Shown here one piece after another: positions 22,845 to 63,157 of a DNA stretch of 64,000 nt. Origin of the DNA: Candidatus Campbellbacteria bacterium. GTDB taxonomy: Bacteria > Patescibacteriota > Minisyncoccia > Phycocordibacterales > EsbW-18. Location of the stretch: positions 98,936-162,935 of the forward strand of contig JANLIT010000003.1 of assembly GCA_024653945.1 (NCBI GenBank), in the 5' to 3' direction. A model generated the notes under the pieces. It was not told the origin of the DNA and ran no database searches. It saw only the letters and a program-made list of their open reading frames with translations. Made by a program: the position numbers and the translations under genes. Positions within the stretch are counted from its first letter, which is position 1, and every line of letters begins with the position of its first letter.

Positions 22845-23741
22845 CTAGTTTTTTCCAAGAAGTGCTCCGATTCTTTCGGAAACTGGCGGGTGAGTCAAAA
22901 ACAACTTTCTCCAGAAACCAATTTTTTTCTCGTGTCCTCCACCAAGCGGACTACTAATAAAAAGATGTGCTGTAGCTTTGTGTACTCGCTTCATGGGTTG
23001 TGTATATGAGGATATCTTCGAGAGCGCTCCTGCAAGCCCTTCTGGATAGCGCGTAAGCAATGCCCCCGATGCATCTGCTAGAAACTCACGTTTGCGTGAA
23101 ATAGCGAGCTGTATGCACAGACCTGCAATTGGCGTCAGAATAGCAAGTACAATGCCGGCAATAACAAAAAGTGCGTTTCCTCGATTGTCATCACCCCCTC
23201 GAATATGACGCGACGTACGCAAGAAAAAATCAGAGAGCAGACTTAAAAAACCAACAATAATCACAACAACTGTCGACAAAAGGATGTCCCAATTGCGTAT
23301 GTGTGAGAGTTCGTGGGCAATGACACCCTCAAGCTCTGATCTATCTAACATATGTAGCAACCCTGTTGTTACGGCAATTGTTGCATGCTCTGGATTTCGC
23401 CCAGTCGCAAATGCATTCGGAGCATCATCAGTAATCACGTAGATTTTTGGCATCGGAATACCTGCAGTAATGGAGAGATTTTCTGTAACGGTGTATAAAT
23501 CAAAAAACTCTTCACGTACTGCGGGGCGTGCACCAGACAGAGAAAGTGCCAATTTGTCGGAGTACCAATAGCTTCCTATATTCATCACCAAACTAAAAAT
23601 AACAGCCGCATACACAATTTCTGGTGCGCCATATACTTGTCCGAAAAACCAACCAACAACTACAATAATGCACAAAAAACCAACCATAAGAAGCCATGTT
23701 TTGGTAATATTATTTTCTTTATTGGAGTATAAGGAGCTCAT
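22845..23741 (-). CDS. htpX: Zinc metalloprotease HtpX (M48)
   Basis: HELSHIRNWD (HExxH); transmembrane topology; M48 length. Confidence 0.85.
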   Translation of the reverse strand: MSSLYSNKENNITKTWLLMVGFLCIIVVVGWFFGQVYGAPEIVYAAVIFSLVMNIGSYWYSDKLALSLSGARPAVREEFFDLYTVTENLSITAGIPMPKIYVITDDAPNAFATGRNPEHATIAVTTGLLHMLDRSELEGVIAHELSHIRNWDILLSTVVVIIVGFLSLLSDFFLRTSRHIRGGDDNRGNALFVIAGIVLAILTPIAGLCIQLAISRKREFLADASGALLTRYPEGLAGALSKISSYTQPMKRVHKATAHLFISSPLGGGHEKKIGFWRKLFLTHPPVSERIGALLGKN

Positions 23742-23748
23742 GTAAAGT

Positions 23749-23860
23749 ACGAAATCCGAATATCGAAACCCGAAATAATGTTTAATTCTCTAAATTCAAA
23801 AACTTTAAACATAAGAATTTGTTGATTTTTTCGAATTTCGTATTTCGAGTTTCGGATTTT
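23749..23860. repeat. Inverted-repeat element built from TTTCGR heptads, copy 1 (family with 62348-62469)
   Basis: Left arm GTACGAAATCCGAATATCGAAACCCGAAATAATG, AT-rich spacer, right arm TTTTCGAATTTCGTATTTCGAGTTTCGGATTTT (imperfect reverse complement); the left arm is ~88% identical to the ftsX-upstream copy; it fills the gap 8 nt upstream of the htpX ATG. Confidence 0.6.
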
Positions 23861-23863
23861 ATC

Positions 23864-26801: not shown

Positions 26802-26825
26802 GGTATTGGGAAGCTCAAAATTCAA

Positions 26826-26897
26826 AGTCCAAAGCTCAAAAGTTTTTGAAGTTTAAAATTTTAGTTTTTTTTGGATTTTGTGCTTTGAGCTTTGTGT
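26826..26897 (-). other. groES-groEL intergenic inverted repeat (mRNA structure)
   Basis: Minus sense CAAAGCTCAAAG..CTTTTGAGCTTTGG complementary segments. Confidence 0.3.
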
Positions 26898-61406: not shown

Positions 61407-62333
61407 TTATGCACGAAGATACCGACGAACAGCGAGATAACTTGAGATTGCACCAAGAAAAATTCCAGCAGCAAGAATAATGAGAAACATCTCTCCAAAA
61501 TTGCTTACGTAATATTCAAACAAGTTCATTGCACCAAAAAATTCTTTGGTAAATGGCCCAATCCAGTACGTCAGAGGGTAAAAGAGTGCAAGGACAAGTA
61601 TTCCAGACACAATACCATACATAACACCCTCAACAACAAATGGTCCACGCACATACATATTTCCAGCACCGACAAGGCGCATAACTGAAATCTCTTCGCG
61701 TGCAGTGTAAATCGCAAGCCGAATAGTATTGAATGTAATAATGAGGGAGAGAACAATAAGAATCACACTGAGAGCAAGTCCGAGTCGTTCTGCTGAATTA
61801 ATGATATTACTTAATTTTTCTATAACCACCTTATTATCGTTATAGTTTACTTTTTGAATGATAACATTATTACTACTTCCGAGAGATGCTGGACTATCTA
61901 AGAACGCCGCGACAGCCTCATATTGAGATGTCTCCTTTGCGCGAATATTAAATACCGCACCAAGTGGGTTATCATCCAACTCTTGAAGTGCGCCGAGAAT
62001 TGTTTGGTCGTCTTTGTGTCGCTCCTGAAATGCTACAAGAGCTTGTTCGCGTGTAACATACCCAACGGTTGCCACCTCAGGAAGTGCTTCAAGAGCTCCT
62101 TTAAGCTTTAAAATATCGGTCTCTGTGGCGTCCGTCAAAAAGTACACATTCACATCAACTTTTTCTTTCAATTGCAGCAGTGATGCATTCAATATTGCTC
62201 CAGAAAAAATAACTGCTCCGAGAGTAAACAGTGTTACCACCATAATCAGGACAGAGGCGAGCGACACAAAACCGTTGCGCCAAAAATTCACAAATCCCGC
62301 TTTCAGTATTCTTTTTGTGTTAATCCAAAACAT
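61407..62333 (-). CDS. ftsX: Cell division permease FtsX
   Basis: 4-transmembrane FtsX topology with periplasmic loop; downstream of ftsE; start set at ATG 62333. Confidence 0.8.
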   Translation of the reverse strand: MFWINTKRILKAGFVNFWRNGFVSLASVLIMVVTLFTLGAVIFSGAILNASLLQLKEKVDVNVYFLTDATETDILKLKGALEALPEVATVGYVTREQALVAFQERHKDDQTILGALQELDDNPLGAVFNIRAKETSQYEAVAAFLDSPASLGSSNNVIIQKVNYNDNKVVIEKLSNIINSAERLGLALSVILIVLSLIITFNTIRLAIYTAREEISVMRLVGAGNMYVRGPFVVEGVMYGIVSGILVLALFYPLTYWIGPFTKEFFGAMNLFEYYVSNFGEMFLIILAAGIFLGAISSYLAVRRYLRA

Positions 62334-62347
62334 AATAGTTACATTAA

Positions 62348-62469
62348 GCACGAAATCCGAATGTCGAAATCCGAAATAATATCTAATTTTTAAATTTAAA
62401 ATTTTTAAACATTTGGATATTCATACATTTTTATTTGTTTCGATTTTCGTGCTTCGATATTCGAATTTT
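62348..62469. repeat. Inverted-repeat element built from TTTCGR heptads, copy 2 (between ftsE and ftsX)
   Basis: Left arm GCACGAAATCCGAATGTCGAAATCCGAAATAATA, right arm TTTCGATTTTCGTGCTTCGATATTCGAATTTT; the right arm overlaps the ftsE stop; the left arm ends 15 nt before the ftsX ATG. Confidence 0.6.
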
Positions 62470-63157
62470 ATAAGACGTACCTTCCCTCCTTATCATCACG
62501 TACCACACGCCCTTTCTCCATTGTAATAACGCGCTTACCCAAACTATCAATAATGCCTTTGTTGTGTGTCGTCAAAAGAACTGTCGTTCCTAAATCATTA
62601 ATCTTTTTCAAAATCTGAACAACTTCATACGAGTTGAGCGGGTCGAGGTTTCCTGTTGGTTCATCTGCCACAAGCACGTCTGGTTGATTCACAATTGCCC
62701 GTGCAATGGCAAGGCGTTGTTTTTCTCCTCCGGACATTTGATTAGGAAATTTCCATGCTTTATCAAGAAGTCCAACGAGTTCAAGTGCGTACGGCACATC
62801 GCTCTCAATATCTACATCATTACGTCCTGCAGCTTCCATTGCAAATGCAATATTTTCAAATGCTGTTTTGTACGGAAGGAGACGAAAATCCTGAAAAATC
62901 ATTCCTATTTTACGTCGTAGGGCACTAATCTCACGACGAGACAACGAATGAATATCAACGTTTCCGAAGGAAACTGATCCCCCTGTTGGACGTTCTTCGG
63001 CAAGCAAAAGTTTGAGAAGCGTCGTCTTTCCCGCCCCCGAGTGTCCCACAATAGAAACAAATTCGCTTGGCTCTATGGTAAAAGTTACCTCTTGGAGTGC
63101 CTTTGAGTCATCCGAGTATATTTTACTAACATTATCAAATGAAATCATGTGCATCAT
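62468..63157 (-). CDS. ftsE: Cell division ATP-binding protein FtsE
   Basis: Walker A GHSGAGKTT; signature LSGGEKQR; Walker B. Confidence 0.9.
   Translation of the reverse strand: MMHMISFDNVSKIYSDDSKALQEVTFTIEPSEFVSIVGHSGAGKTTLLKLLLAEERPTGGSVSFGNVDIHSLSRREISALRRKIGMIFQDFRLLPYKTAFENIAFAMEAAGRNDVDIESDVPYALELVGLLDKAWKFPNQMSGGEKQRLAIARAIVNQPDVLVADEPTGNLDPLNSYEVVQILKKINDLGTTVLLTTHNKGIIDSLGKRVITMEKGRVVRDDKEGRYVL

Follow-up and report, generated by a model that had tools for sequence, protein, structure and literature searches.

The question raised by this locus is why, in a stretch of 64,000 nt from a Candidatus Campbellbacteria genome (hereafter, the window), the cell division genes ftsE and ftsX are separated by a long inverted repeat, and whether this repeat is a regulatory coupling device of the operon or a miniature element inserted at the gene junction, both of which had been proposed in a sequence-only reading of the DNA. 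The final 4.5 kb of the window carry four minus-strand genes, prfB, ftsE, ftsX and pyrG, each with a Pfam match (ABC_tran for ftsE; FtsX_ECD and FtsX for ftsX). The upstream gene, ftsE (ABC ATPase; 62468–63157, minus strand), ends with the TAA codon at 62470–62468, and the downstream gene, ftsX (permease; 61407–62333, minus strand), starts with the ATG at 62333. This ATG was taken as the start, rather than the GTG at 62351, because the database protein that is 100% identical to the FtsX of the window and all 120 homologues listed are 308 aa long. The gap between the two genes accordingly comprises 134 nt (62334–62467), the length given previously, and about 124 of these 134 nt form a single inverted repeat that consists of four CGAANNN heptads, an AT-rich spacer and four NNNTTCG heptads; the description of the gap as almost entirely repeat is thus accurate.

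The element, which we denote copy B, spans 62346–62470 (minus strand) and reads, in the transcribed sense, TAAAATT(CGAANNN)x4, AT-rich spacer, (NNNTTCG)x4, TGCTT. The 5′ arm (62436–62470, minus strand) contains the heptads CGAATAT, CGAAGCA, CGAAAAT and CGAAACA and overlaps the end of ftsE, its first TAA being the stop codon itself (sense strand TAAAATTCGAA...). The 3′ arm (ATTATTTCGGATTTCGACATTCGGATTTCGTGCTT; 62346–62380, minus strand) reads ATTATTTCG-GATTTCG-ACATTCG-GATTTCG-TGCTT in sense, carries the family signature TTTCGGNTTTCGANATTCG and ends 12–14 nt ahead of the ftsX ATG. Hence the overlap with the ftsE stop codon, as originally described, stands, whereas the distance of 15 nt reported for the other arm does not. 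On the plus strand, the CGAA cores start at 62351, 62358, 62365 and 62372, and the TTCG cores at 62439, 62446, 62453 and 62460; the four heptads of each arm are in phase, with the 4-nt core (CGAA or TTCG) invariant and the remaining three nucleotides variable. The AT-rich sequence between the arms, the predicted hairpin loop (62381–62435, minus strand; 55–63 nt), includes degenerate inner heptads of the CAAA/TTTG type and a vestigial ATG at the position occupied by the start codon of the IVP gene in full-length relatives, and was compared with the family consensus CGAAACAAAT-TCAAATGACCAAAAT. Copy B is the ORF-less form, like most family members, and no IVP-like (PF05635) ORF was detected in the window or in the flanks of the relatives.

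When the window was searched with a degenerate three-heptad pattern (CGAAWNYCGAAWNYCGAA, at most two mismatches), 11 matches were obtained compared to 0.78 expected, a number that none of 100 shuffles reached. All 11 were confined to two loci, copy B and 23745–23862, and in-phase runs of four CGAA or four TTCG are found nowhere else in the 64 kb. Copy B is a real and non-random feature. The second locus (copy A; 23745–23862, minus strand), a paralogue of copy B, is located between a 61-aa ORF (stop codon 23866–23864) and a gene for an M48 peptidase (htpX-like; ATG at 23741), both on the minus strand, starting 2 nt past the upstream stop codon and ending 3 nt ahead of the downstream ATG. The two copies have the same orientation relative to transcription and are 82–84% identical over about 120 nt, arms and non-repetitive spacer included, in agreement with the earlier description of the same element at another place in the window. 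A third heptad array (26811–26897, minus strand) fills the groES-groEL spacer, bordered by the groES stop codon (26900–26898) and the groEL ATG (26801), and has the 4+4 architecture of copy B with both arms changed in a complementary manner, CAAA/TTTG for CGAA/TTCG. The assignment of this variant to the same family is tentative because the sequence similarity is weak (nhmmer E 9e-4, i.e. about 1e-3).

To place copy B in its evolutionary context, the ftsEX loci of seven relatives with a readable spacer (L001, L003, L004 and L210–L213) were compared, along with L002. The premise that ftsE and ftsX normally overlap or abut turned out to be weak, given that the spacers in this clade are 26, 70, 96, 112, 114 and 167 nt long. 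L001 (CP064977.1, a complete genome; FtsX 85% identical to that of the window) has the element in its 114-nt spacer, in the same position and orientation and with the same TAAAAT(C/T)CGAA start at the ftsE stop codon as copy B, one heptad in each arm having decayed. The 26-nt spacer of L003 and L004 (FtsX 86%) is non-repetitive and lacks the element. The 96-nt spacer of L210 (1837–1932; FtsX 84% identical to the window and 93% to L001) consists of a CAAA/TTTG heptad inverted repeat; that of L213 (3889–4000, 112 nt; FtsX 76%) contains eight direct CAACAAC/CTACGAC heptads, the inverted partner being absent; that of L212 (3834–4000, 167 nt; FtsX 77%) contains an unrelated long hairpin, AGACCCCGTGAGATAG...CTATCTCACGGGGT; and that of L211 (1807–1876, 70 nt; FtsX 80%) contains no recognised element of the copy B family and shows a faint 7-nt periodicity, as judged by eye. 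Given the contents of L210, L213, L211 and L212, the junction is, apparently, a hot spot for repeats. In the closest relative, L002 (1–36; FtsX 89%), the contig stops 36 nt upstream of ftsX; no arm is visible in these 36 nt, and an assembly break at this junction would fit the presence of a repeat there.

Thus, the presence of the element between ftsE and ftsX varies among relatives of similar distance and, being without conservation at this junction (L003/L004, L210–L213), the element does not belong to a conserved ftsEX arrangement; the junction is a variable zone where elements land or decay. The window, L003 and the L001–L210 pair are roughly equidistant, so that one ancestral insertion followed by loss is indistinguishable from independent insertions. 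These observations bear directly on the possibility that copy B is a dedicated cis-regulatory RNA of ftsEX, i.e. an intercistronic hairpin (an RNase III site, a thermosensor or a translational coupler) selected to set the FtsE:FtsX ratio. Such a role would be compatible with the way in which copy B exactly fills the spacer, from the stop codon to 12 nt ahead of the ATG, with its folding in the sense strand, which is better than that of shuffled sequences, and with the element at the orthologous site of L001. However, L003 and L004 do without it, L210–L213 have unrelated or variant sequences instead, the same element is found between the 61-aa ORF and htpX, with a variant between groES and groEL, and members of the family adjoin unrelated genes in many phyla. 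Furthermore, Rfam has no matching family: the spacer gave nothing at the gathering threshold (best E 2.9–6.6, which is the chance level), and the gathering scan of the window returned only four tRNAs and no rRNA. We therefore regard a dedicated ftsEX regulator as quite unlikely, and nothing pointing to a thermosensor role for copy B was found. In other words, of the two proposals made in the sequence-only reading, the coupling device is not upheld, the junction being variable in relatives and the same element adjoining unrelated genes, whereas the insertion of a miniature element at an operon junction is borne out by the presence-absence pattern (L003/L004 vs. L001), by copy A at another site and by a gene-bearing family that spans many phyla. 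The compared junctions differ in both spacer length and content and do not share a non-repetitive sequence of the same length.

To delineate this family, HMMs for the left and the right arm, made from 56 elements of other phyla with this genome excluded, were searched against about 150 kb with nhmmer. The only matches (overall E 1e-7 to 2e-11) were the two window copies and the L001 orthologue; in the window, they covered 62345–62402 (E 1.9e-11 and 5.4e-9) and 23743–23861 (E 7e-10 and 3e-8). Given that arm models derived from foreign phyla recover the window copies, the membership of copies A and B in a cross-phylum heptad-arm family is established at the level of sequence similarity. The 19-mer TTTCGGNTTTCGANATTCG of the 3′ arm is present in at least 120 stretches from more than 10 phyla (species-representative genomes), including Planctomycetota, Desulfobacterota, Verrucomicrobiota, Nitrospirota, Omnitrophota, Aminicenantes, WOR-3 and several lineages of Patescibacteria. 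The consensus of the elements oriented by the pattern is much longer than the pattern demands, (CGAANNN)n-CGAAACAAAT-TCAAATGACCAAAATTCAAA ... variable core ... GTTTTGGTCATTTGAATTTTGAATTTG-TTTCGGATTTCGATATTCGGATTTCGGATTT. The family as defined here has in-phase arms of three to five units each, compared to four and four in copy B. A loose two-arm pattern was found in 85 stretches of viral contigs, many of them multi-copy and with varied heptad types, and a related pattern in 111 metagenome stretches; the ATTATTTCGG... pattern, considered as a counter of Campbellbacteria copies in metagenomes, was rejected as not lineage-specific. Short copies occur in both orientations, some of them between divergent or convergent genes, with a weak excess of the sense orientation relative to flanking ORFs (18 vs. 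9, the ORF-based calls being noisy in GC-rich contigs).

The cores of the two arms change together: matched CGAA/TTCG cores were found in 85 stretches and matched CTAA/TTAG cores in 28, compared to 7 with the mixed CGAA/TTAG combination. These counts support the conclusion that the arms are kept complementary, matched cores being 4–12 times more common than mixed ones. Complementarity of arms within an element was the same as between elements (22.9 vs. 22.9 of 36 positions), pattern selection making the right arms alike.

Several members of the wider collection show peculiarities of their own. The left arms of L135, L258, L266, L327 and L333 contain a nested GC-rich palindrome (e.g. GCCTGCCTGCGGTAGGCAGGGCAGGCAGGC), which suggests a second small repeat that targets heptad elements. 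The short, element-bearing contigs L109 and L112 (JAUWXF01, Desulfobacterales) have reported coverage of 936x and 581x, respectively, which may mean that a high-copy repeat was collapsed or that the contigs are extrachromosomal or viral. In L123 (3200–3344; Moraniibacteriota), a minimal element with arms almost devoid of a spacer adjoins an apparent tRNA gene in reverse complement. L018 and L035 (IMGVR_UViG_3300035183_001479, viral, GC 0.38–0.39) contain nested arrays of GCGAATA/GCGAATG inverted pairs, several per kb, a density far above that of the window.

Could copy B be simply a heptameric simple-sequence repeat that arose locally through polymerase slippage and is palindromic by chance, without any insertion? 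Heptameric repeats are over-represented in intergenic regions, often with about four units (PMC4692102, PMC2700814), the number of heptads differs between Coxiella strains (PMC4990558), and other heptad arrays occupy the same junction in L213 (the eight direct CAACAAC-type units), L210 and, perhaps, L211, so that some repeats may have been generated locally. Nevertheless, copies A and B are 84% identical through the non-repetitive spacer, the arms, like the inner sequence, show conservation across phyla and correspond to the flanks of IVP genes, and the 5′ and 3′ cores covary, all of which makes slippage as the origin of the element very improbable. Slippage probably alters the number of heptads after insertion, leaving the origin unexplained.

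The nature of the family becomes apparent from its full-length members. In L138, L185, L195, L179 and L173, an ORF of 120–122 aa is located between the arms; the two of these ORFs scanned against Pfam, those of L185 and L195, matched PF05635 (23S_rRNA_IVP; E 7e-12 and 3e-14), and one of the two proteins also matches TIGR02436 ('four helix bundle protein') and PDB 2RLD. Several of the loci have an ORF ending ...ELMNIFGAILRKSE, with the right arm immediately after its stop codon and the left arm a short way ahead of its ATG. Among 231 pattern-selected loci, there were 15 PF05635-type ORFs, 10 of which had the right-arm pattern 19–46 nt past the stop codon on the same strand. The full-length cassettes are directly flanked on either side by host genes of the same strand. 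As a check for circularity, three IVP genes were picked by protein similarity alone: these are located at yebC|folA, between an unknown gene and an ABC ATPase gene, and at leuC|leuD, all co-directional with their neighbours, and the left heptad arm was present in all three and the right arm in two, with CTAA/TTAG cores on both arms in one case. Gene-bearing members of the family thus exist, and they are found in sense between host genes that run in the same direction.

The IVP start codon is the ATG within the inner heptads (T)CAAATGAC(C)AAAAT, the complement of which is carried by the 3′ arm, so that the stem would sequester the start codon. The vestige of this region persists in short elements, copy B having CGAAACAAAT-AAAA-ATG at the matching place. 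The PF05635 protein family itself is large, with at least 8000 close homologues.

Individual gene-bearing loci differ in layout. An IVP cassette in L217 (1455–1500 and 1861–1935) has CTAA/TTAG cores throughout both arms (CTAAATCCGAAATCCTAAATTCTAAAC ... TTTAGGATTTAGATATTAGAATTTAGGATTT), a transversion-type compensatory variant of the CGAA/TTCG arms. In L214 (1450–1500; Daviesbacteria), the stop codon and the last codons of yebC lie within the left heptad arm, the right arm is missing and the IVP stop codon is 2 nt from the folA ATG, so that a cassette can supply the C-terminus of a host gene and lose one arm. In L220 (1203–1500), leuC and the IVP gene are separated by a left arm, an additional stretch of about 250 nt that may hold a small ORF, and then another left arm, this one partial, an arrangement that looks like a nested or tandem insertion.

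An alternative source of such insertions is a classical MITE, that is, a DNA transposon shortened by deletion and mobilised in trans by a transposase specific for its terminal inverted repeats. Copy B resembles MITEs in its terminal inverted repeats, its length (about 120 nt), its position between genes, its occurrence in several copies per genome and its presence-absence polymorphism; moreover, as is usual for repeats, many family members come from very short contigs. However, the arms consist of heptads in tandem, not of a unique terminal inverted repeat, and the only gene found between them is that for the 120-aa four-helix-bundle PF05635 protein, with no transposase. Among about 50 oriented elements, the termini showed no consistent direct repeat: beyond AAAT(C/T)CGAA, the sequence is variable, and TA is not universal. 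Comparison of the filled site of the window with the empty site of L003 likewise showed no duplication. A TA target-site duplication in the style of IS630/mariner, which fits the AT-rich CPR copies (TAAAAT...ATTTTA), was rejected on account of the variable flanks in GC-rich hosts. BLAST searches of plasmid and phage collections returned no match, to which the low-complexity filter may contribute. A MITE origin is, on this evidence, unlikely. MITEs and REP, BIME and REPIN elements alike share with copy B a small size, intergenic location, palindromic structure, multiple copies and tolerance between co-transcribed genes, and can serve mRNA processing or stability. The copy B family differs from them in lacking a transposase-type partner (a RAYT or an IS transposase), the GTAG/CGTC tag and target-site duplications; its arms are heptad arrays, and its partner gene encodes a four-helix-bundle protein.

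We then considered what the element does in the transcript. No sigma-70 promoter-like site (−35/−10) and no terminator-like site (GC-rich hairpin with a U-tract) was found on the minus strand within 62334–62467; having neither a promoter nor a terminator of its own, copy B would be included in the prfB-ftsE-ftsX-pyrG transcript. In the sense strand, the window copies fold better than shuffled sequences (z = −2.7 and −4.0), and the mean folding z-score of 53 family members is −6.2. In the RNAalifold consensus structure, the three copies from Campbellbacteria share 22 pairs, arranged as helices of 10, 6 and 6 with small internal loops; no compensatory changes are present in this three-sequence alignment. 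In register, the variable triplets of the copy B arms are often non-complementary, yielding 3x3 internal loops, and the best fold is shifted by one heptad; with these mismatched triplets and the shifted register, the stem is expected to be weaker than that of Coxiella. Folding energy shows no strand asymmetry (the top strand is more stable in 22 of 53 elements, Wilcoxon p = 0.41), and neither this equal folding of the two strands nor the occurrence of copies in both orientations argues for selection at the RNA level. Cleavage of the copy B stem by RNase III is a reasonable inference by analogy with Coxiella; no RNase III signature motif was found in the roughly 150 kb of loci searched. Ideas invoking a T-loop, a tRNA-like structure, HutP/TRAP-type binding or omega-repressor heptads were dropped, there being no supporting feature.

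The strongly conserved feature of the arms, the periodic CGAA core, could equally reflect recognition by a protein. Under the explicit form of this idea, the heptad arrays are mainly a DNA or RNA platform for protein binding, e.g. with one heptad per subunit of an IVP/Avd-like pentamer, and the hairpin is secondary. Suggestive of such binding are the invariant 4-nt core that recurs every 7 nt in arms of four to five units, the frequent mismatches between the triplets of the two arms, and the position of the arrays on either side of a gene for a protein whose family includes Avd, a nucleic-acid-binding DGR protein (PMC10053308), and, according to Lin et al. 2006 as cited in PMC4990558, forms pentameric toroids. 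Against it, no IVP gene was found near the window copies, and the covariation of the cores together with the strong folding z-scores argue that pairing matters. Binding as the main role, with pairing as an accessory, is accordingly highly improbable, although recognition of the arrays by a protein is compatible with, rather than exclusive of, the explanation that we favour, namely an ORF-less miniature of the PF05635 cassettes.

The closest known counterparts of these cassettes are found in rRNA. PF05635 was named for ORFs inside the intervening sequences (IVS) of 23S rRNA, located in helix 9, 25 or 45; IVS that encode the S23p protein are present in Coxiella burnetii, Leptospira, Haemophilus, Brucella and Xanthomonas. 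The IVS and the S23p/PF05635 protein that they encode, familiar from the early 1990s onwards, have been treated as an rRNA curiosity; to our knowledge, neither the function nor the mode of spread of the IVS is understood. Another relative of the protein, Avd, is an essential DGR factor. The PF05635 proteins belong to the Avd-like superfamily, Avd itself being a pentameric, basic four-helix bundle (PMC10053308), and PF05635 is also present in rRNA insertions of CPR bacteria (bioRxiv 10.1101/2024.02.27.582315). [quoted passage not shown]

The similarity between the two systems extends to several features. Both have terminal inverted repeats built of heptamers, 28 bp being four heptads, the length of a copy B arm; the same protein family is encoded between the arms in the full-length members of the CGAA-heptad family; the ORF is in the sense orientation within the host transcript; the ORF decays and the number of heptads varies; the distribution is sporadic, consistent with horizontal transfer; and the termini are complementary, the copy B stem being imperfect and about 22 bp long. 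In contrast to the IVS, copy B resides at the junction of a protein-coding operon rather than in a 23S rRNA helix, lacks the ORF, consists of CGAANNN rather than GACAGAT heptads and has a stem broken by internal loops; cleavage by RNase III, shown for Coxiella, is attributed to copy B by analogy alone. The resemblance to DGRs is confined to the shared superfamily of Avd and the protein of the full-length CGAA-heptad members, whereas no reverse transcriptase and no template or variable repeats lie near copy B, which itself encodes no protein.

Heptameric simple-sequence repeats are likewise over-represented in bacterial intergenic DNA, typically with about four units and sometimes inverted (PMC4692102, PMC2700814), and share with the arms of copy B the 7-nt period, the unit number, the intergenic location, the occasional inverted pairs and the conservation of the first four positions with the last three variable. 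The unit sequences (GGGAATC in Xanthomonas, GGGGA(C/T)T in Nostoc, the Calothrix STRR and the fourfold heptanucleotide of Geobacter) differ from CGAANNN, and these repeats have been treated as G-quadruplex or regulatory repeats with no reported connection to PF05635 (PMC4692102, PMC2700814). In the literature, we found no description of CGAA heptad arrays or of IVS-type cassettes at mRNA junctions and no link between heptameric repeats and PF05635 genes.

Taken together, these observations appear indicative of the following scenario. We classify copy B as a relative of the S23p-type rRNA intervening sequences that resides in mRNA and lacks an ORF, and we consider it likely to be a miniature of the cassette family that is transcribed together with ftsEX and probably cleaved by RNase III. 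The family would be selfish, its complete cassettes consisting of three parts in order, a 5′ array of CGAANNN heptads, the PF05635 gene and a complementary 3′ array of NNNTTCG heptads, and copy B would be a decayed miniature that reached the short ftsE-ftsX spacer by insertion or by inheritance, at a position in which no gene is broken. Transcribed within the prfB-ftsE-ftsX-pyrG message, the arms would pair in RNA to form the imperfect stem of about 22 bp (10+6+6), closing the AT-rich loop. As in the Coxiella IVS, RNase III would most likely cut this stem, so that the message either is split between ftsE and ftsX or simply loses the insert. A change in FtsE:FtsX dosage, if any, would then be incidental rather than the outcome of a conserved regulatory arrangement. 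Neither a transposase nor a target-site duplication was found for the family. Recognition by a protein of the four to five heptads adjacent to the gene for a pentameric protein would be an attractive addition to this scheme.

In the widest reading, which as a whole is possible and rather doubtful, the 23S rRNA IVS may be only the rRNA-borne representatives of a very large class of mobile cassettes that spans phyla and has no canonical transposase, integrase or reverse transcriptase. Each cassette would consist of a gene for a small, pentameric, Avd-like protein between complementary arrays of four to five heptads, would insert in the sense orientation at gene junctions and in rRNA loops, and would leave behind thousands of ORF-less hairpin miniatures. 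Conceivably, the pentamer binds one heptad per subunit and thereby either drives mobility or controls the processing and translation of the cassette, the IVP start codon being within the stem. We found no earlier description of this wider pattern, in which heptad arms enclose IVP genes at ordinary junctions in diverse phyla and miniatures abound.

If heptad arms are indeed routine around PF05635 genes at operon junctions, the ligand of the protein and the movement of the cassette would become testable questions, as would the splitting of polycistronic mRNAs via RNase III, and the widespread excess of intergenic heptameric repeats could be tested as a footprint of such cassettes. For genome annotation, many of the 'long intergenic spacers' of the small CPR genomes may be the heptad-hairpin element.
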